From contig JAIZWK010000001.1 of the NCBI GenBank assembly GCA_021498095.1, positions 3,630,001 through 3,662,000 on the forward strand: a stretch of 32,000 bases of DNA, in the 5' to 3' direction. This document shows positions 1,570 through 27,926 of this stretch, piece by piece. Under the pieces are notes generated by a model. It had not been told where the DNA came from. It saw only the letters and a program-made list of their open reading frames with translations, and searched no databases. The position numbers and the translations under genes were made by a program. Positions within the stretch are counted from its first letter, which is position 1. Each line of letters starts with the position of its first letter. The DNA comes from Candidatus Harpocratesius repetitus (GTDB taxonomy: Archaea; Asgardarchaeota; Lokiarchaeia; Sigyniarchaeales; Promethearchaeaceae).

Positions 1570-2232
1570 TTACAAGCGCTCTTTCCAACCCTTATCTTTT
1601 TTATATCTAAAATCCTCATTAACAGATTGTGTGTATGAAGAATCAGTTGTAGTTGTGTCAACAGATAAATCCTTCTTATAGGTTCCCATTCGATCATTAG
1701 GATCTGTATAAATAATATTAGATTGTAGAGCTCGTAATTTGTCATGAATAATTTCTTTTTTCTTTATTTTATCAGGGTTTAACTTTTTATAAATCATCTT
1801 AACAATCATGATTACAAACGCTGCAGCAAAAGAAACAAGTAAATAAAGCGAAAAGAGAGTTCGTCCAAAAATAAAGGTAAAGGGAAGATATTCATCATAT
1901 CCACCATACAATAACCGCATTAATCCCCACATGGCAAAAAAGACAACAGATCTTATCATCATGGGTAAGAATTGTTTTTTGGACATTTCGCTTACTAATT
2001 TCATCATATCAGCATTTATTTGGGCAATTAATTGAGGATTATTTTCAGATTGAGCGATTCTTAATTGATCTTGTAAATCTTGTACCAACATTTGGGTTTG
2101 CATTTGAGATTCTGCAGAGACCGCATATCTGTGTGAAAACCATTGTGAAAACGCAACCATTAATAGTGAAATACCCACAATTTGCCAAACAACTTCCGGA
2201 GGTGCAATTGTCATTACTATCATAGATGTCAA
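1570..2232 (-). CDS. EMC3/TMCO1 (DUF106, Oxa1-superfamily) membrane protein
   Basis: TM1, then a cytosolic coiled coil (QMLVQDLQDQLRIAQSENNPQLIAQINADMMKL), then 'KQFLPMMIRSVVFFAMW' TM2 and TM3. This is the DUF106 architecture. Confidence 0.75.
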   Translation of the reverse strand: MTSMIVMTIAPPEVVWQIVGISLLMVAFSQWFSHRYAVSAESQMQTQMLVQDLQDQLRIAQSENNPQLIAQINADMMKLVSEMSKKQFLPMMIRSVVFFAMWGLMRLLYGGYDEYLPFTFIFGRTLFSLYLLVSFAAAFVIMIVKMIYKKLNPDKIKKKEIIHDKLRALQSNIIYTDPNDRMGTYKKDLSVDTTTTDSSYTQSVNEDFRYKKDKGWKERL

Positions 2233-2301
2233 TTGTGCAGAAGATTTTAATTTTCTTTTTTTATTTGATAAAAGAATACCAGCTTTATATTAAATCGCGT
2301 A

Positions 2302-2847
2302 TTGTATGCTTATATGAGAAAACAAGAGGAATCAACAGAAAAACATAAAATTAAAGAATTAAGTAATCATGTTTGGTTCCAATTAATCCTATACTTTTCT
2401 TTCGCAGTGTTAATGGTATTATTAAATATTGGAATTCAAAATTTTCATCTTAGAGTAATTTTTCCATGGCTACAACCTAAATTATCAACAATTCCCTTCT
2501 TTTATACATTCTATATCTCAACAGACCCATATAACATGCCTGAAATTGTCGGATCCATCTTGGCAGTGGGTATTACATATATTATTAAATTCTTCTTAGA
2601 CAAATTCTTCGTTTTTCAGCAAAGATCAAATCAACTCAAAGAAACAGGAAAACAATTTACTCTCTATTTTCTTTTTGCAATTGTAACTACTCTTGAAAAT
2701 CTCTTAATTCAATTTTTATTAGGAATTTGGACAAATATAAGCCTTGATTTCCGTATAATCATTGCATTAGCTTGTGGATATAGCACGAAATTCATATTGG
2801 ATAAGAAATTTAGTTTTAAAAAAAGAGAACTGGGCAACCAAAGATAA
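2302..2847 (+). CDS. GtrA-like membrane protein
   Basis: Four hydrophobic segments with repeated 'KFFLDKFFVF' / 'KFILDKKFSF' GtrA-type motifs. Confidence 0.7.
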   Translation: MYAYMRKQEESTEKHKIKELSNHVWFQLILYFSFAVLMVLLNIGIQNFHLRVIFPWLQPKLSTIPFFYTFYISTDPYNMPEIVGSILAVGITYIIKFFLDKFFVFQQRSNQLKETGKQFTLYFLFAIVTTLENLLIQFLLGIWTNISLDFRIIIALACGYSTKFILDKKFSFKKRELGNQR

Positions 2848-2940
2848 AAAGTAAAAGAAAAACAATAGAGAAAAGAAGGATAAAAGAGAGAAGAAAGATA
2901 AAGTAGATAAAAAAGAACAATAATGGAGTAGAAAAAGGAT

Positions 2941-2980
2941 TGAAAATGATTGAAAATGGTTGAAAATGGTTGAAAATGAT
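2941..2980. repeat. Tandem decamer (TGAAAATGRT)x4
   Basis: Read directly: tgaaaatgat tgaaaatggt tgaaaatggt tgaaaatgat, inside a purine-rich intergenic tract. Confidence 0.9.
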
Positions 2981-3101
2981 TTCTAATTGGAAAAAGTTCG
3001 AAGCAAACAAAAAAATATTGTAAAAATAGAAGAAATCAAAAATCTCTCCTAAAAAAAAGATAATATTCTAAAATATGAAATAATGTGCTTTTTTATTTTA
3101 T

Positions 3102-4488: not shown

Positions 4489-4872
4489 ATGGATTATGAA
4501 AAACTTGTTTTTGAACTAATGGATACTGAACCAGCAGTTTTTGGGGGCGCAGTTATCAATGCAAATAAAGAGTTAGTTTTCCAGACTGAAAACTGGGATT
4601 TACAGCAAGATATTGATTCTATTGTAAAAGCAATGGATGAAGCAAATAAGGATGATGGTAAAAATCCTGGAAGAATTCAGATTATGAATGTAACTTATAT
4701 GATTGTAGAATTTACCCCAGAGCGGATTATTGCGACAAATGTCGCCCATAAAGGTCATGTCATAATTGCCATGCATGAAGGTTGGGGTTTAGTTACATAT
4801 ATCGATCCTTCAAAAGGACCCCGTGATGCTTTGTTCAATGTTCAGAGTTTTACCCGTCGTTTAAGCGAATAA
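4489..4872 (+). CDS. Asgard (Loki-type) profilin
   Basis: 127 aa with 'QTENW', 'YMIVE..PERIIATN...KGHVII' and 'TYIDP..GPRDALFNVQ.F', motifs I recall from characterised Lokiarchaeal profilins. Confidence 0.88.
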   Translation: MDYEKLVFELMDTEPAVFGGAVINANKELVFQTENWDLQQDIDSIVKAMDEANKDDGKNPGRIQIMNVTYMIVEFTPERIIATNVAHKGHVIIAMHEGWGLVTYIDPSKGPRDALFNVQSFTRRLSE

Positions 4873-5020: not shown

Positions 5021-5242
5021 TTTTACCAAGGTGCCAAATTCAAGATATGTAAATCAAAAATTATGATAAAATCGGCATCAAATTGAAGAATTTATAAAGA
5101 GGATGGTAAATTTTTAATAAATTCTTTGAAAAAATCGAGTTCGACAAAAAAAGAATTGCGATATTTCAGATATAAGTCGGAAATATATGAATGATATTCA
5201 AAAAAGCGTTTAAATTGAAAAAGATAAAATATCCTCAATTAT
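5016..5242 (-). repeat. 227-bp dispersed repeat (arm A, 5141-5240, plus linker), inverted copy of 21551-21777
   Basis: Reverse complement matches 21551-21777 at 208/227 positions with no gaps. Confidence 0.97.
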
Positions 5243-5375
5243 ATGATATTTTTTTACTGACCAGGTTTGATCAAAAATTTTTTTGTTGTTGATAATTTTT
5301 TATCAATATTTCAATTCTTAATAAATAATAATACTACAGAATCTTTTAATAGAAAAAGAAAGAAAACTATTTTTA

Positions 5376-6785
5376 ATGGAACAATCGTCTACTGCTTTCA
5401 ACATTCAAAAGTCTGAGAAAAAAAAATATGAACGTCTTCTTTCTGTTGATATAGTAAGGGGAATTGCGATTTTTGGGGTTCTTTTTATTCATCCAATGAT
5501 TTTTGGAACATGGTATACCGAAACTTTAGCTTTAGAAATTGTCCCTATATATGTTATTGCAATTTTTGCACCAATTATCTTAATGGGTACATGGGGTGGC
5601 GGATTTCCCCTGATCTCTGCAGTTGTCAACACATATAATATTTATCATAGATTAGAAATCGGATATTCTTATAAGGAAGCAGCAAAACCTGTCATAATTA
5701 ATTCAACTTTTATTCTTTTAATATCACCTATAAAAAATCTACTTTTCAGCAGGACGTGGACAAATTCTTATCAAGAAGGAATGAATTATTCTATTTTAAG
5801 CAGATTGATGGAAGAAGGAGAATTGGCTTGGCCTGGTCCTGAAAAAATATTTCAAATAGGATCTTTACCATCAATTGCAATTAGCGGCTACATTACAGTA
5901 TTAATTCTTTGGATTCTCTTTAAGAATGAAGGGAGAAATAAAGTAAAACGAAATGCAATAATATTGACCATAATCGGGATATTCTTAACATTCATTTCAA
6001 ATCCATTAAACGAATTGTTAAATCCAATCATTATAGATTTATTTTTAAAGGGTGGAATTAGTCGATTTTTCGCCTTCATCCTTCGCTGGTTTTTTGGAGC
6101 CCAACTTTCTTACTTTCCCGTAGGAATTTATGGCTTTTTTGGAATAGTTGCTGGAATATTTCTTTCCGTTAGGGCACCACTTAAAAAAATTAAACGATAT
6201 GGATACGGTTTAGGTTTATTTTACTTAGCCGCTTTTATCATAAGTTTGATAATTACAACAAATAAAGCACTTGCTCAAGGGAAAAATCCTATTTTTGTGA
6301 TTTTAGATTATGAAGTATATCCACGCGAATTGTTATTTTTCAGCTTAGGATGCATGCTGATTCTTTTAGTATTTATGGTCAAACGCTATGAATATATTCC
6401 GCAAGAATTAAAAGTAAAAAGGGCGAAAAAATCACTATTTTTCAGAAGATTTGGAGTTGCAACTCTTACATTTTACGTTTTAGAACCTATTTTTAACAAC
6501 AGTTTTGCGCTTCTCTTTCACACAATTTTTGGACCCAGAGAGGGTTTTGGAATTCAAGATCCGTTTATGACCAATTTTTGGGCAATATTATTATATGTAT
6601 TCACATTTGAAAGTTTTTGGATATTGTTTTCATATTTTTGGTCAAAAACAGGGTATAAATACGGAGTCGAATATTGGATCATAAGAATTTCAAATCGTTT
6701 CCGAGAAACCAAATCAACTCGATTACAACTTTTTGATTATCAGCAAAATAAAGAGCCAATACTTGAAAATGCCAAAGAAAAATAA
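5376..6785 (+). CDS. Polytopic membrane protein, DUF418/DUF1624 (HGSNAT-like acyltransferase) family
   Basis: N-terminal 'RLLSVDIVRGIAIFGVLFIH' motif, about 11-12 TMs, late 'G..TLTFY' motif. Confidence 0.7.
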   Translation: MEQSSTAFNIQKSEKKKYERLLSVDIVRGIAIFGVLFIHPMIFGTWYTETLALEIVPIYVIAIFAPIILMGTWGGGFPLISAVVNTYNIYHRLEIGYSYKEAAKPVIINSTFILLISPIKNLLFSRTWTNSYQEGMNYSILSRLMEEGELAWPGPEKIFQIGSLPSIAISGYITVLILWILFKNEGRNKVKRNAIILTIIGIFLTFISNPLNELLNPIIIDLFLKGGISRFFAFILRWFFGAQLSYFPVGIYGFFGIVAGIFLSVRAPLKKIKRYGYGLGLFYLAAFIISLIITTNKALAQGKNPIFVILDYEVYPRELLFFSLGCMLILLVFMVKRYEYIPQELKVKRAKKSLFFRRFGVATLTFYVLEPIFNNSFALLFHTIFGPREGFGIQDPFMTNFWAILLYVFTFESFWILFSYFWSKTGYKYGVEYWIIRISNRFRETKSTRLQLFDYQQNKEPILENAKEK

Positions 6786-6894
6786 TAATAAAGAAATTAT
6801 AAAAAAAGGATAAAAGCAAAAATAAAAATTGGTTAAAAATAAGAATAAAAAGAGAGATAAACGCAATTTTAATTAAAATAAAAATCATACTTTT

Positions 6895-7614
6895 TTAAAT
6901 TACTGTTAAAAGCGGGCGTAAAAGGACTATTACCAAGATTAATACCACAATTAGCGGAATTAAAATTAGTACAATTCGAAGCTGCTGCCTCCAACCCCAC
7001 CGATTTATTCCTTTTAAAATTTTCTCTATATTGCGTTGACGTTTTCGACTTACCCGCTCCCATCTATTTTGAGCTTGATTCAAATTAGTGTGAAATTTAT
7101 CCCGTTTTTCTGCTTTCTTTTGATATAACGCGCTCTTCATAGCGATGAAATTCTCATTCAATTTCTGATTGGCAGCTTCAAATTCTTGCATTTCTTGTTG
7201 AAATTTTGCTTCTAAACGTTCTTCCCGCCGTTTAATTCGTTCAAGTCTTCTTTGCTGAGCAGCTTTTTTCCGCTTTCGTAAACGTTCTAATCTTCTTAAA
7301 TGATTCTGTCGAATATCATCTTCAAATTGTTGCAGGGTTTTTTCAGTGTTTAGTATAAAATCTTGCCATCCACGTGCGATTTTCATTGGCAGAGGCAATT
7401 CTTTCTCAAGTTTTGCTTTTTCTTCAGGAGATATGGAAGAAAAATCGTAATCTTTGCTAATAATATTCTCATTATTACTGTTATTATTTGATGAAGATTC
7501 TGGATTACTTTGATTATTATTTGAAGAAAAAAATTGATCAACTTCATTTTCAAGATTATACAAGTCTTTTACAATATCTCGTGTAATTCGTTTTCTCTTT
7601 TTCTGTGCGACCAT
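6895..7614 (-). CDS. Tail-anchored basic coiled-coil protein (paralog 2)
   Basis: Long R/K/E/Q helix and one C-terminal TM. ATG at 7614 is preceded by GGTGA, which overlaps the upstream stop. The ORF track starts at GTG 7623. Confidence 0.8.
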   Translation of the reverse strand: MVAQKKRKRITRDIVKDLYNLENEVDQFFSSNNNQSNPESSSNNNSNNENIISKDYDFSSISPEEKAKLEKELPLPMKIARGWQDFILNTEKTLQQFEDDIRQNHLRRLERLRKRKKAAQQRRLERIKRREERLEAKFQQEMQEFEAANQKLNENFIAMKSALYQKKAEKRDKFHTNLNQAQNRWERVSRKRQRNIEKILKGINRWGWRQQLRIVLILIPLIVVLILVIVLLRPLLTVI

Positions 7615-7623
7615 GTTTATCAC

Positions 7624-8553
7624 CTATATCAAACCTAAAGGAATAAATGATTCATTATTTGAAATTAAATCAAAAAGATTTACTCCAAGACCTTTGAAAA
7701 TATAGAAAATAGCCATAAGGACAAGAAAGATACCTACAATCCATGCTAATAAGCTAATATAACCTCGCCACCATAATCGGTTTGAAAATTTAACAAAGCG
7801 TTCAGTTTGTCGGCGTTGACGACGAATAAATCTTTCCCAATTTTGTTGACGTATCTGTTGCGTTTCTGAAATATACTCTTTCTGCATTTGGACAGCCATC
7901 TGGCGACGAGCTTTACGAGCAGCTCTGCGTTTTATCCGTAAAGCACGACGATGTTCCCTAATTTTTTGCTGTAATTCCCGATTTTCCTGCAGAATTGCTT
8001 CATTTTGGAGACGTGCTTCTTGTAATGTTTTTTTCTCGATCTGTCGAACCAGCTGCCGCTTTTCTCGGCGACTTTGCTCTATTTCATTCAACTTCTGCTT
8101 AAATTCTTCTTGTTGATGTTCAAAAAAGGCTTTAATTCGCCGTCGATCCCGTTCTTGGCGTTGAAGGAGGCGTTTATGACGACGTTCAAATACTTTTTTA
8201 TTTTTAACCCTTTTTTCTAAGCGCTTTTCTTCCTGTAAAAATCTTTCTTCTTGCGCTTGCTCTAAGGAATTTTGAGTACTTTGTGAGAATTGAAGCCAAG
8301 CTTTATTTATTTCATTTTCTGATGATTCTTTTTGAGAAGATTGAAACGGTTGCTTTATATCTTGGGATTGAGATTTAGAATTTTTAAAAATTTGAATATT
8401 TAAATTTTTAAAAGGATTGATAGCATCTACAAATTCTTCGAAATCTTGACCAATTTTTTCAAAATCAATTATTTTCTTTTTCTCTTCAGGCATTTTTCCA
8501 TTCACATTTTCTATATTAGACTTAATTGGTTTCTTTTTTCTGCAGTATTTCAT
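7624..8553 (-). CDS. Tail-anchored basic coiled-coil protein (paralog 1)
   Basis: Long R/Q/E helix and one TM near the C-terminus. Start may be ATG 8493 (MPEEKK). Confidence 0.8.
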   Translation of the reverse strand: MKYCRKKKPIKSNIENVNGKMPEEKKKIIDFEKIGQDFEEFVDAINPFKNLNIQIFKNSKSQSQDIKQPFQSSQKESSENEINKAWLQFSQSTQNSLEQAQEERFLQEEKRLEKRVKNKKVFERRHKRLLQRQERDRRRIKAFFEHQQEEFKQKLNEIEQSRREKRQLVRQIEKKTLQEARLQNEAILQENRELQQKIREHRRALRIKRRAARKARRQMAVQMQKEYISETQQIRQQNWERFIRRQRRQTERFVKFSNRLWWRGYISLLAWIVGIFLVLMAIFYIFKGLGVNLFDLISNNESFIPLGLI

Positions 8554-24539: not shown

Positions 24540-25037
24540 ATGAACGAGCAATCTCGACAACAATTTAAGATGATAGTAGTCGCGACTGAAAATGGACTCC
24601 CATTAGTGTCTGTGAAATTAGATAAGAATTTAAAAGAAGAATACCTCACACCATTTTTTTCATCAATTCATCAATATTCAGATCTTGGTGGTCTGCAGAG
24701 TCATCAAACAAATGTGATTATTAATGATTATGAAATTGTGATAAATCGAAAAGATGGATTAATGTTGATTGGTGTGTTTGACAAGGATATGAAAAAACTC
24801 TCAATTATGCAAGATAACATGTATAAAGTTCTTACATTATTTAAAAAAATGTATCAAGAAGAACTTGAAGCGATCCAAGAAAATAAACCAGTAGATATGA
24901 AAATTTTTAAGAAATTTGAATTTTTGATTGAAAACGCTATGCAAACGTACATTCAACAACTAAAAGAAGATGAAGAAAATCGTGATAAAGGAATATTTAC
25001 TAAACTTATAAGTTTATTTAAAAAGAAGCCAGAATAA
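24540..25037 (+). CDS. Longin-like domain protein with amphipathic C-terminal tail
   Basis: 'IVVATENGLPLVS', 'LTPFFSSIHQYS', 'VLTLFKKMY', 'FKKFE.LI', tail GIFTKLISLFKKK. Confidence 0.75.
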   Translation: MNEQSRQQFKMIVVATENGLPLVSVKLDKNLKEEYLTPFFSSIHQYSDLGGLQSHQTNVIINDYEIVINRKDGLMLIGVFDKDMKKLSIMQDNMYKVLTLFKKMYQEELEAIQENKPVDMKIFKKFEFLIENAMQTYIQQLKEDEENRDKGIFTKLISLFKKKPE

Positions 25038-25094: not shown

Positions 25095-27926
25095 TTAACT
25101 AACTAAATATTTCTTAGAGCGCCCTCTATAAAACGAAGATAACATTTCAGCAATTACTTTTATTAATTCATCTTGTTGAGTTATCGTACAAACCATTTCA
25201 TCCAATTTTTCGGTAACTGGCCCATAAAAAGCTTCTTCTTGATCGCGGTTAGCACCAAATACATTAACAGGAAAATCAGGAACTTCCCGTAAATCAATGT
25301 TATCCATTTCAACCAATTTTTTTGCTAAATCTTTATCAGTAATCTTGCAGGCAATTGTAACTTTTTGTCTCATTTTTGTTTGTTCAATGGCTTTCACAGG
25401 AAGTAAACTCATATCAGGAACGACAATTAAACAATGGAGTTTGGTTCGTCTCACCATAGCATCCAAAAATGTCATGATCGATTGTTTTGTAACTATCTGC
25501 CATGTTCCTTCAGCTTTTAATAATTCCATTTCCTTTACATCTTCCCAAACACCTTCGAATTGTTTGCGATACGTATCACTGATTTCGATAGCAGACTTAA
25601 TAGGTTCATAAATTACTTTTTCAATTGTATCAACGGCTTTAAAGAATTTTTTACCTGTATTTTCGTATTCATTAAGAGATTTTTCTCCAATCGTATCGGA
25701 TACTGTCAAAAACCCAGTATTCAAAGATTTGATTGAATCTTGTAAGTTTGACTTGTGAGTTTTTGCAGTTTCAATAAACCCATCTGTTACAGATTTAACT
25801 GAATTTATAATAGATTTTTCTGTAGAAGATAGAGTAGCATGAGAATTAGTTTCAATATCTTTGGAGATTTTGGTTATATTCCCCGCTAAAGTCGAAGAAA
25901 GAGACTCAATGGATTTTTTATTTTCTTCATTTCCTCTCTCAATAGCTCTAATGCTCTGATTAATGGTTTCAGTTATTTTTTCTTTAATTTCATTTGTCGC
26001 AGAGGTATTTTTCTGAACACTTGCTTCAATAGTTGCAGCAATTTCTCTTTTCATTGTTTTAGTTCCATCTAAAAGTGTTGAACCAAATGAATCAACATTC
26101 TTCTTTAATGTTTTAGTGTTACTGCTCTTTATCTTAGAAATCGATGAATTTAGTGATTTCGAAATGCCGTTAATCTCCTTATTTATACCAGTAACAGAAT
26201 TAACAATATTATTTTCAAATGAACTTACTTCATTTTGAATATTTTTAGTGAATGATTCAATAATACTTTGAAATTCAGTTCTAAATTCCGTTAGAAAGGA
26301 TTTTTGGGATTCAGAAAATTGTGAATGAATAGTTTGATTCATTAATTCCATACCTGATAAAATTTCGCTACTATTCTTATTAGAAACGTCGATAAGTCGA
26401 TCTGATTCTTTAATAATATTTTCAGTAAAACTAGTTAAATTCTGTTCAATTTCTGTTAATAATTTTCTTGATTCTTCAATCAGAGTTGTGTTAAATGTCG
26501 TAGCGGTTTCATTTACAGTAGTCATTAATTTACTTATTTTTTCGTTAAGTTTTTCTTTTACTACATTTATTGTGGATTTTAAAGAATTTTTACGTTGTTC
26601 GCTAACTTCTTTAATTTTTAAAACCAAATTATCCAATTCTTCACTTAAGATCTCTATATTTGAATCAAATTCGTTAGAAATGGTCGATTTTTGCTCAGTA
26701 ATTTGGGTTTCAAAATCTTTAACTCCAGTTTGCAATGTGTTATCCAAATTTGATGTGTTTTGGTTAATATTTTCTTTAAAAGAATTTTGAAGAGTTTCTA
26801 CGCTTGAAGATATTTGAGATTTTGCTGTATCGATATTTTCTGATAGTGAATTATTACGTTCTTTTAATTGATTCTCTATTGAAGCATGTTGTTCAGTCAA
26901 AAGTTCTTGAATCTTACTTAGATTTGTATTAACTTTTTGTTCTATATTCTCAATAGTTTTTCTTGAAGTTTCAGTTATATGATTAATGACAGAATCTTTT
27001 TGATTAAAAACTTCAGATTTTAATCCATTAAATGCAGCATCAATTGTTGCAGTACTTTCTTTCGCCATTTTTTCTGAAGCAACATGACTTTCTTGCTCAA
27101 TTTTATCAAAACTATTTACTGCCTGTTGGTGCCACAAATCCATACTTTTATTGATTTTGTTAACATTCTCTGAATGTTGTCTTAAAATCGATTCTGAAGC
27201 AGAATATATAGAATCTTTATAATTTATTTTACTTTCTTCAAAATGCTGCTCCATTTTTGATTCATTTTCATTTAATCCGTTAACTAGTGAGATTTTATTT
27301 TGCTCAGAAGATTGTAATGTCTCTTCCTTATTCTTAGAAATCTCAGTAATCGATTCTTCAGATAATTTGTTAAGATCGGAAGTAATTTTTGTTGTTATTT
27401 CCGAAATATTTGATTCAATTGTTGAAATACTTGATTGTTTTTGAGATTTTATTTCTTCTAAAGTTGAATTTATTGAATTGTTAATTGAATCTAATTGTGT
27501 ATCTGTGAGGGAGTTAATTTCTTGTTTGTTATCTCTAACTATGTCTCCAATATTTTTCTTAACTGAATCCATAGTAGATTTTGTGGAATCTCTTAAATCT
27601 TCTATTCCTTTTTCAACATATTTCCGATTTTTCATCATTTGTTGGACAAGTTCTTCTAATTGCTTGGTAAATCCTTCAAATGGCGCAATTGCAAAATATA
27701 CATCAACTAAACCCTTAGCTTTTGGTATTTTTTGAGCTAAACCACGTTCGACAAATTGATCAAGAATTTCCTTAATTTTGTCGTATTCAGTTTGTTGTTC
27801 TAAATTTTTATAGGCACAAACTTCTCCGATTGTTAATTTTCCTTTAATTAACAAGAGCTCATAACATGATGCTTGAAGTTCATCTAACTGTAATTGCGCT
27901 TTAGCAATTTCAACAAAATTTTTCAT
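25095..27926 (-). CDS. TrmB-like wHTH, long hendecad helical insert, and TrmB C-terminal-like domain
   Basis: N-terminus 'QASCYELLL..G.LT.GE.....IL..FVERGL......Y.A..P' is a TrmB-type HTH. About 700 aa of amphipathic repeats follow. C-terminus 'W.I....I.....M....K....IVVP...D.EEA.YG'. Confidence 0.75.
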   Translation of the reverse strand: MKNFVEIAKAQLQLDELQASCYELLLIKGKLTIGEVCAYKNLEQQTEYDKIKEILDQFVERGLAQKIPKAKGLVDVYFAIAPFEGFTKQLEELVQQMMKNRKYVEKGIEDLRDSTKSTMDSVKKNIGDIVRDNKQEINSLTDTQLDSINNSINSTLEEIKSQKQSSISTIESNISEITTKITSDLNKLSEESITEISKNKEETLQSSEQNKISLVNGLNENESKMEQHFEESKINYKDSIYSASESILRQHSENVNKINKSMDLWHQQAVNSFDKIEQESHVASEKMAKESTATIDAAFNGLKSEVFNQKDSVINHITETSRKTIENIEQKVNTNLSKIQELLTEQHASIENQLKERNNSLSENIDTAKSQISSSVETLQNSFKENINQNTSNLDNTLQTGVKDFETQITEQKSTISNEFDSNIEILSEELDNLVLKIKEVSEQRKNSLKSTINVVKEKLNEKISKLMTTVNETATTFNTTLIEESRKLLTEIEQNLTSFTENIIKESDRLIDVSNKNSSEILSGMELMNQTIHSQFSESQKSFLTEFRTEFQSIIESFTKNIQNEVSSFENNIVNSVTGINKEINGISKSLNSSISKIKSSNTKTLKKNVDSFGSTLLDGTKTMKREIAATIEASVQKNTSATNEIKEKITETINQSIRAIERGNEENKKSIESLSSTLAGNITKISKDIETNSHATLSSTEKSIINSVKSVTDGFIETAKTHKSNLQDSIKSLNTGFLTVSDTIGEKSLNEYENTGKKFFKAVDTIEKVIYEPIKSAIEISDTYRKQFEGVWEDVKEMELLKAEGTWQIVTKQSIMTFLDAMVRRTKLHCLIVVPDMSLLPVKAIEQTKMRQKVTIACKITDKDLAKKLVEMDNIDLREVPDFPVNVFGANRDQEEAFYGPVTEKLDEMVCTITQQDELIKVIAEMLSSFYRGRSKKYLVS

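Follow-up and report, generated by a model that had tools for sequence, protein, structure and literature searches.

A window of 32,000 nucleotides, positions 3,630,001 to 3,662,000 of contig JAIZWK010000001.1, was analysed from the genome of Candidatus Harpocratesius repetitus, which is represented by one 4.36-Mb contig. Positions 6895-8553 of the window are occupied by two co-directional genes of the minus strand, here called A and B, which an initial annotation had correctly located and had interpreted as a tandem pair of tail-anchored coiled-coil proteins with synaptobrevin-like C-termini. We find that their products are very probably tail-anchored rods built on an 11-residue repeat, and not SNAREs. 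The longer gene, A (7624-8553, minus strand), encodes 309 amino acids as called in the open reading frame (ORF) list and placed in an eight-sequence family alignment; its orthologues share 89%, 57% and 70% identity with it, and an alternative start at codon 21 would yield 289 amino acids, the same as in the closest orthologue. The shorter gene, B (6895-7614, minus strand), encodes 239 amino acids from the ATG at 7614 or 242 from a GTG at 7623. The ATG is more probably the true start since both the database copy and the orthologues begin there. Both proteins have their nearest relatives among hypothetical proteins, from Candidatus Harpocratesius sp. (89% identity for A, 81% for B) and from metagenome-assembled genomes labelled 'Promethearchaeota archaeon'.

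The TAG stop codon of A abuts the GTG, with the ATG of B 9 nucleotides further on, so that the genes are separated by 0-9 nucleotides here; the corresponding spacing in relatives is 18-47 nucleotides. Overlapping the stop codon of A, and 4 nucleotides ahead of the ATG of B, the sequence reads AGGTGAT (7619-7625, minus strand), a Shine-Dalgarno-like motif which may function in ribosome binding for B. Co-transcription of the two genes is likely; the translational coupling previously claimed for them is no more than plausible. Downstream, 11-20 nucleotides past the stop codon of B, a TTTTTATTTT run (6875-6884, minus strand) is a possible archaeal oligo-T terminator, a sign that must be read as weak because the genome has a G+C content of around 30%, as does the window. 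A search of sequencing runs found no RNA dataset carrying the locus and two DNA datasets, both from a single study and probably deriving from the source sample.

The AlphaFold2 models of both proteins, each made with its family alignment, follow a common four-part plan of N-terminal amphipathic helix, disordered linker, long uninterrupted helix and C-terminal membrane helix. In A a short amphipathic motif at around residues 27-49 (8407-8475, minus strand) is modelled as helix over residues 31-44 and gives way to disorder, after which an unbroken helix spans residues 79-288 with values of the predicted local distance difference test (pLDDT) mostly above 90. Arranged in rows of 11, the rod of A (residues 79-264; 7762-8319, minus strand) comprises around 17 units and carries a net charge of +25. 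The membrane helix that hydropathy places at around residues 265-287 (7693-7761, minus strand) is followed by a conserved 23-residue tail, and in this region W271, G274, F276, Y284, K287 and G290 are invariant among close orthologues. The model of B has a helix at residues 3-29 (7528-7608, minus strand), supported by the alignments, then a disordered, Asn/Ser-rich linker at 30-60 and an unbroken helix over residues 75-238 with pLDDT values of 88-96. The B rod (residues 75-212; 6979-7392, minus strand) consists of 12 units of 11 residues by its periodicity and has a net charge of +19; the membrane helix, again assigned by hydropathy, covers residues 213-232 (6919-6978, minus strand), precedes only 7 further residues, and contains a Pro, P220, that is invariant in all 20 B-type sequences. 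Neither rod contains any Pro and both have hardly any Gly. Across the family the long helix measures 116-190 residues, equivalent to around 17-28 nm, and runs straight into the membrane helix. A Foldseek search with the B model produced no PDB matches and only AlphaFold DB clusters at E values of 0.4 or more, an uninformative outcome since a lone helix yields no usable fold signal, and a feature search of the ESM Atlas gave no usable match.

In each protein the C-terminal helix is the sole strongly hydrophobic segment, as originally described, and hydropathy reveals no N-terminal signal-like segment in either. With 7 and 23 residues, respectively, following the membrane helix, B and A are both tail-anchored in the sense of a single membrane helix whose distance to the C-terminus is at most 30 residues and no signal peptide (as in bioRxiv 10.1101/810531). 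The missing signal peptide, the strongly basic pre-membrane side and the position of the anchor within 30 residues of the C-terminus together suggest that the bulk of A and B would be cytoplasmic. The host genome encodes a homologue of the Get3/ArsA-type ATPase which, along with an EMC3/DUF106-like gene in the window, would indicate a capacity, but only a capacity, for post-translational insertion of A and B.

The defining property of the rods is their periodicity. Hydrophobic residues in the B rod recur with a period of 3.65 residues, corresponding to 11/3, at a z value of 6.4. Of 20 B-type sequences, 19 have their best period between 3.60 and 3.675 (z 2.2-11.8 relative to shuffled sequences), with power at 3.5 near zero, and in the same proportion of sequences the period of 3.65 is coherent along the whole rod. 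When the sequences are set out 11 residues to a row, starting at the membrane (10-12 rows for B and 11-17 for A), hydrophobic residues keep to the same three or four columns, giving the a-d-e-h pattern and the 11-residue periodicity by which a hendecad coiled coil is recognised. The stripe that results is narrow (the majority of hydrophobic residues deviate from its centre by no more than about 45 degrees) and sparsely filled: within about 50 degrees of the centre, 53% of residues are hydrophobic in B and 39% in A. It is also unusually rich in Trp, Phe and Met, these hydrophobic residues being 35-36% aromatic, with Trp contributing 9-12% and Met 10-16%. For comparison, the rod of a TrmB-like protein encoded in the same window (25095-27926) has a stripe that is 62% hydrophobic, of which 14% is aromatic and 0.7% Trp.

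Outside the stripe, Lys and Arg tend to lie nearer to it and Asp and Glu at the opposite pole, a trend towards a class-A pattern that is modest and confounded by the overall positive charge. Conservation of the polar positions that flank the stripe equals that of the stripe; variability rises only at the opposite pole. The best-conserved rod motif is N-R-(D/E)-K-hydrophobic, in which the Asn occupies a core column three repeats before the B anchor; here it takes the form N-R-D-K-F, three 11-residue units before the membrane. Exactly at the junction of rod and membrane helix, A and B have a conserved Gly or Ser placed between aromatic residues. Net rod charges of +15 to +19 for B and +25 to +32 for A are found here and in close relatives, whereas the values are -3 to +6 in distant members, which share the repeat, motifs and anchor; strong positive charge is thus a trait of the host's clade only. 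Differences in length between A and B rods are not clean multiples of 11, so that no register argument is possible.

With the repeat defined, the proposed relationship to SNAREs could be assessed from several directions. A Pfam search of A and B found no SNARE or Synaptobrevin match at E values up to 10, and no Pfam family exceeded threshold for A, B or 28 relatives; NCBIfam returned nothing. Among the relatives the sub-threshold matches were at noise level: Synaptobrevin at E values of around 0.6 in three of 20 B members (best 0.63) and SNARE at 0.15 in one of 20. PF00957 and PF05739, run against the whole genome, gave nothing over cut-off, and the A/B locus was not even among the sub-threshold matches, a kind also seen in 10-11 of 14 ordinary control genomes. 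PF05739 provides a fair test, as it is sensitive enough to detect the Asgard SNARE-like family: of the 21 genomes of one Heimdall-group family, 14 have full-length matches at E values up to 1e-3, as against none of 75 from the host's order and none of the 14 control genomes. Profile-profile comparison with that Heimdall/Hod-group family using hhalign yielded probabilities of 1.0% for the B alignment and 0.6% for the A alignment. The profile checks thus go against the synaptobrevin-like reading of the C-termini.

The repeat itself was compared with that of six tail-anchored SNARE-like proteins from Heimdall/Hod-group genomes, in which the 56-70 residues before the anchor were analysed. These control proteins, presumably the published Heimdall SNARE-like family, are 226-261 amino acids long and have a core Gln, clean heptads and a full-length PF05739 match of 20.8-26.4 bits, just at or below cut-off. 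Their power is 2.3-3.1 at a period of 3.5 and 0.01-0.25 at 3.667; the A/B family shows the reverse, with power of 0.01-0.7 at 3.5 and the 3.65-3.67 period dominant. The control stripe is 94% hydrophobic and lacks Trp, while around half of the A/B stripe is polar. Counting back 34 residues from the distal Trp of B reaches the position of the would-be central, or zero, layer, which is indeed Phe as first reported (F174, with R-D-K just ahead) and is invariant among close orthologues, whereas the controls keep the core Gln.

What A and B do have in common with SNAREs (PF00957, PF05739) and with the prototypic SNAREs of Heimdallarchaeota is a tail anchor directly following a helix, a basic, aromatic helix-membrane junction and an occurrence in Asgard archaea. 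A basic, Trp-containing stretch ahead of the membrane is, however, a generic feature of membrane anchors. SNAREs differ in having a motif of around 53 residues with 16 heptad-spaced layers and a central Gln or Arg, as opposed to the hendecad A/B rod of 116-190 residues with its half-polar, Trp/Phe-rich stripe. The lineages differ too: A and B belong to a Lokiarchaeia-type order, and SNARE-like proteins have been reported solely from Heimdallarchaeota (bioRxiv 10.1101/810531; 10.64898/2026.10.19.760048). On the grounds of absent profile similarity, an 11-residue rather than heptad repeat, and a Phe in place of Gln or Arg at the central layer, we judge that the A/B pair is not a member of the SNARE family, and the proto-SNARE part of the earlier proposal falls with it.

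That A and B are related to each other is only faintly evident in a pairwise BLASTP comparison, which aligns 28 amino acids beside the membrane at 43% identity with an E value of 0.001. Comparison of the two families with hhalign gave 92% probability (E value 6e-7) with small alignments and 99.3% probability (E value 1.9e-20, 158 columns) with larger ones of 20 B-type and eight A-type sequences. This profile-profile match is decisive, weak as the pairwise one may be, and A and B are true paralogues. The similarity begins at a W-x-x-F block that starts the long helix and continues to where the membrane helix ends, and it includes the shared blocks noticed initially: GWQDF in one protein and AWLQF in the other open the long helix, and W-E-R...R-x-W-W/G-W adjoins the membrane. 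The short N-terminal amphipathic motif is also common to the A and B families and to the single-gene relatives described below.

An exhaustive hidden Markov model (HMM) search with the B profile found 21 proteins at E values up to 1e-3 among 1.84 billion representative proteins. Twenty of these measure 52-244 residues, and the same anchor is carried by the full-length members that were inspected; the weakest match (E value 8.7e-4) is an unrelated 321-residue repeat protein without the anchor. Among 301 Asgard genomes searched, the B type was found in 53 of the 76 that belong to the host's order, to which the host's family contributes four of seven (this genome counted) and the sister family 49 of 69. 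Matches of the B profile outside the order (E values 6e-5 to 9e-4) were set aside as coiled-coil noise, since they lie in long ORFs or fail to cover the anchor region. The A type is more restricted: eight of 13 further genomes of the host's family have it, but essentially none of 82 from the sister family. Wherever both genes were located, in six of six genomes, they are adjacent and co-directional, as they are at five diverged metagenomic loci. At five loci of the sister family a single B-like gene of 153-208 amino acids stands beside the same aminotransferase gene that accompanies the pair here, with no second paralogue. Because A is limited to the host's family while B occurs in both, the pair is best read as a family-level tandem duplication in which B is the conservative copy.

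The family that possesses the A+B pair includes Candidatus Lokiarchaeum ossiferum, in whose closed 6.04-Mb genome B is UYP48074.1 (NEF87_004359), annotated as hypothetical. We found no paper mentioning NEF87_004359 or NEF87_004360, nor, beyond the Heimdall SNARE work, any that combined Lokiarchaeia with tail-anchored proteins. A and B represent an undescribed, lineage-specific family. At one divergent locus, where the B-type protein has been automatically named 'gas vesicle protein', the gene upstream of it (2014-3087, plus strand of that locus) is not an A-type paralogue but encodes an unrelated 357-residue Pro/Ala-rich protein with a Cys-rich C-terminus.

Other database matches were considered and rejected. 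The most frequent was to Pfam LMBR1, seen in 13 of 20 B and two of eight A members with a best E value of 9e-4, all below the 31.9-bit cut-off. The alignment pairs the A/B rod and anchor with profile positions of around 211-382, a long helical loop and the next membrane helix. Since the matching members are homologous to one another the recurrence is not independent, and we treat the likeness as one of composition and architecture. Similarly, matches at E values of 0.05-3 to the viral fusion families Fusion_gly, CoV_S2, GP41 and Baculo_F reflect architecture only, namely a helix-aromatic-anchor end. Profile matches in the PDB are chance-level coiled coils, among them influenza HA2 (E value around 0.005), apolipophorin-III (0.025), LMBD1 (1) and ribosomal eL31 (0.2). 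PADLOC matched A and B at 18.6 bits to coiled coils, in DndD and PDC-M40C, but not to the same one, and had no match for a single-gene relative; PHROGs gave nothing. Neither gene is a defence or phage gene.

The pair is set in a block that comprises two MaoC-type genes, an aminotransferase, GH57, A, B, a convergent profilin, FtsX, ABC, GtrA, an EMC3/DUF106-like gene and a radical-SAM gene. The same block is found throughout the host's family, with GH57 missing from some loci, and is not kept in the sister family; limited as it is to a single family, it says little about the function of A and B. The profilin (4489-4872, plus strand, 127 amino acids) has no Pfam match but is a clear Asgard profilin, matching the structures 5YED and 5YEE with an E value of 2.7e-23 and also 5ZZB, 5ZZA and 7PBH. 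At every locus of the host's family this gene and the A-B pair are arranged tail to tail, although here they are separated by an extra gene (5376-6785, plus strand), a 469-residue multi-pass membrane ORF with no Pfam match. None of the eight related loci examined has this ORF at that place, repeat elements were initially noted nearby, and it is probably an insertion.

Two further genes had been cited as fitting the SNARE idea, and neither lends itself to that use. The EMC3/TMCO1 (DUF106)-like membrane protein (1570-2232, minus strand) does have a match, to EMC3_TMCO1, but at 21.7 bits against a cut-off of 27.1. The only longin-like signal in the window, a 165-residue protein at 24540-25037 (plus strand), is likewise sub-threshold, consisting of Roadblock/longin-type matches to MAPKK1_Int (E value 0.003) and Fuz_longin_1 (E value 0.08). 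The TrmB-like gene mentioned above, on the minus strand, encodes a 943-residue protein that has a TrmB-type winged helix at its N-terminus (E value 7e-4) and in which some 650 residues (around 110-760) have a strict 11/3 periodicity with power of up to 4.4 at 3.667. Apolipoprotein repeats match it with 60.7 bits, short of the cut-off of 90. It resembles A and B in coming from the same organism and in maintaining the same 11/3 periodicity over hundreds of residues, but differs in being soluble, with a DNA-binding domain, an Ile/Leu/Val-rich stripe with almost no Trp, and no anchor. In the sister family, all five loci have a conserved protein of 320-339 amino acids with two C-terminal, zinc-ribbon-like Cys-x-x-Cys motifs, which flanks the aminotransferase and single B-like gene (locus positions around 350-1360 or 5100-6200).

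How might such rods operate? We tentatively favour, at somewhat less than even confidence, a nearly untwisted, paired coiled-coil stalk standing on the membrane. The conserved membrane helices would hold the A and B rods side by side, the rods would pair through their stripes, and the stiff stalk so formed would keep the conserved N-terminal motifs some 20 nm beneath the membrane, in a position from which they could capture a partner in the cytoplasm. Its role would be that of a structural anchor or spacer and not of a zippering fusion machine. In the sister family, with one gene, the same rod would act as a homo-oligomer, and the tandem duplication would have turned a homomer into a heteromer. 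A parallel A-B stalk would be in keeping with a narrow stripe that has conserved flanks and an Asn in its core, with membrane helices that are specifically conserved and with genes that are obligatorily paired; the adjacency of the genes is joined here by a conservation of the membrane helices that goes beyond mere hydrophobicity, in the Pro of B and the Trp, Gly, Tyr, Lys and Gly of A.

The a-d-e-h pattern of 11 residues defines the right-handed, near-straight coiled coils in rotary-ATPase peripheral stalks, heterodimers included (PMC6131620). Those stalks (F-type b/b'; A/V-type E/G; PMC6131620, PMC3293630) resemble A and B in their long a-d-e-h helices, which form homo- or heterodimeric right-handed coiled coils of around 14-15 nm, and subunit b has a single membrane helix. 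There is, however, no sequence similarity, and A and B differ in their C-terminal anchor and aromatic-rich stripe, the lack of a globular head, and the lack of ATPase genes nearby. Subunit b of the F-type ATPase has its membrane anchor at the N-terminus. Eukaryotic rod tethers with a tail anchor, in the form of golgin-84, giantin, CASP and the junctophilin spacer helix, share with A and B a C-terminal anchor, a long helical rod and a short conserved N-terminal motif at its distal end. A and B are much shorter and have an 11-residue rather than heptad repeat and no known second membrane to tether, and there is no detectable homology.

Several observations weigh against the paired stalk. With its hydrophobic occupancy of 39-53%, some 35% of it aromatic, the stripe would make a poor coiled-coil core, below both the TrmB-like rod and the SNARE-like controls in this respect. 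Since both rods are strongly basic here, parallel pairing would be repulsive, and the rods differ in length by around 50 residues. The conserved Gly or Ser at the junction between rod and membrane would permit a hinge, while adjacency of the genes is weak evidence of interaction as it is seen within one taxonomic family only. Prediction of a complex between A (residues 79-309) and B (residues 62-239), using their own alignments, gave a score of 0.13 against a mark of 0.32, which is evidence neither way.

The hinge leads to a second explanation, only a little less likely, in which bending at the conserved Gly would let the amphipathic rod lie down on the cytoplasmic leaflet with its stripe of Trp, Phe and Met in the interface, in the manner of the 11-residue-repeat helices of apolipoproteins, alpha-synuclein, perilipins and LEA proteins. 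The anchored rod would then sense, stabilise or shape the membrane, perhaps, as a speculation, in the thin protrusions typical of cultured Lokiarchaeia. The 11/3 period would keep the stripe straight and so suit adsorption to a surface, and a stripe rich in aromatic residues and Met but of low hydrophobic occupancy, the distribution of basic and acidic residues around it, a net positive charge in most members and the small residue between aromatics at the junction all accord with it. So do weak but recurrent matches to the Apolipoprotein profile in four of 20 members (best E value 4e-4), PDB matches to apolipophorin-III and ApoA-I at E values of 0.025-0.08, and the name 'gas vesicle protein' given automatically to one member. 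Such periodicity is characteristic of long helices on lipid surfaces; it is shared over long stretches with apolipoproteins A-I, A-IV and E (PF01442), apolipophorin-III, alpha-synuclein and group 3 LEA proteins (PMC6975979). Helices of the apolipoprotein type also have basic residues near the stripe and acidic ones at the pole, an arrangement to which A and B show a modest trend, and give the weak recurrent profile matches.

On the other hand, apolipoprotein-type helices are broken by Pro into 22-mer units, and A and B have no such Pro-punctuated repeats, being instead permanently anchored with a conserved polar face. Their stripe is narrower than that of typical lipid-binding helices and has a conserved Asn within it, while the polar flanks, where many charged residues are strongly conserved, have a constancy for which simple adsorption to lipid has no need. 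No A or B member matches the PF01442 or PF07464 profile over cut-off, the best Apolipoprotein match reaching 20.6 bits, far under the threshold of 90. AlphaFold2 gives rod and membrane helix as one straight helix, although with no membrane modelled.

A third proposal, that these are very basic anchored rods which hold ribosomes, RNA or DNA at the membrane, seems improbable. YqjD and ElaB of E. coli, ribosome-binding proteins anchored by their C-terminal tails, have a layout comparable to that of A and B. The high rod charges and long Arg/Lys/Gln runs in the host and its close relatives would suit such a role, as would the chance-level matches to basic ribosomal proteins, but the near-neutral distant members show that strong charge is no trait of the family, and no similarity was found to DUF883/ElaB or any nucleic-acid-binding family. 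Finally, a proto-SNARE pair whose helices zipper between two membranes, driving or preparing fusion, can be dismissed with near certainty, since it has in its favour a common architecture of helix, basic aromatic stretch and C-terminal membrane helix only, and must contend, beyond the evidence above, with a rod two to three times the length of the SNARE motif and with cultured Lokiarchaeia that have no known internal membranes (bioRxiv 10.1101/810531).

Precursors of eukaryotic trafficking systems are being sought among the tail-anchored proteins that Asgard archaea possess, and a second SNARE, of Lokiarchaeia type, would have been important; rejecting A and B in that capacity removes a false lead. 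What remains of value is a well-conserved family that combines a C-terminal anchor with a single helix of 17-28 nm, a strict 11-residue repeat and a Trp/Phe-rich stripe. The family is structurally distinctive and lineage-restricted. The generic role of a heteromeric membrane tether first suggested for it stands as one of two leading models, supported indirectly by the adjacency of the genes and the conservation of their membrane helices. Its occurrence in the cultured Candidatus Lokiarchaeum ossiferum makes it amenable to localisation and pull-down there, and the single gene of one family set beside the duplicated pair of the other offers a natural comparison for the evolution of homomeric into heteromeric rods. 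It is conceivable, if rather unlikely, that the rod is a Lokiarchaeia-specific cortical element, either a heteromeric stalk linking the membrane to a cytoplasmic structure such as actin or a surface scaffold shaping protrusions. Were that true, it would represent an independent form of membrane organisation, neither SNARE-based nor eukaryote-like, in the closest cultured relatives of eukaryotes.

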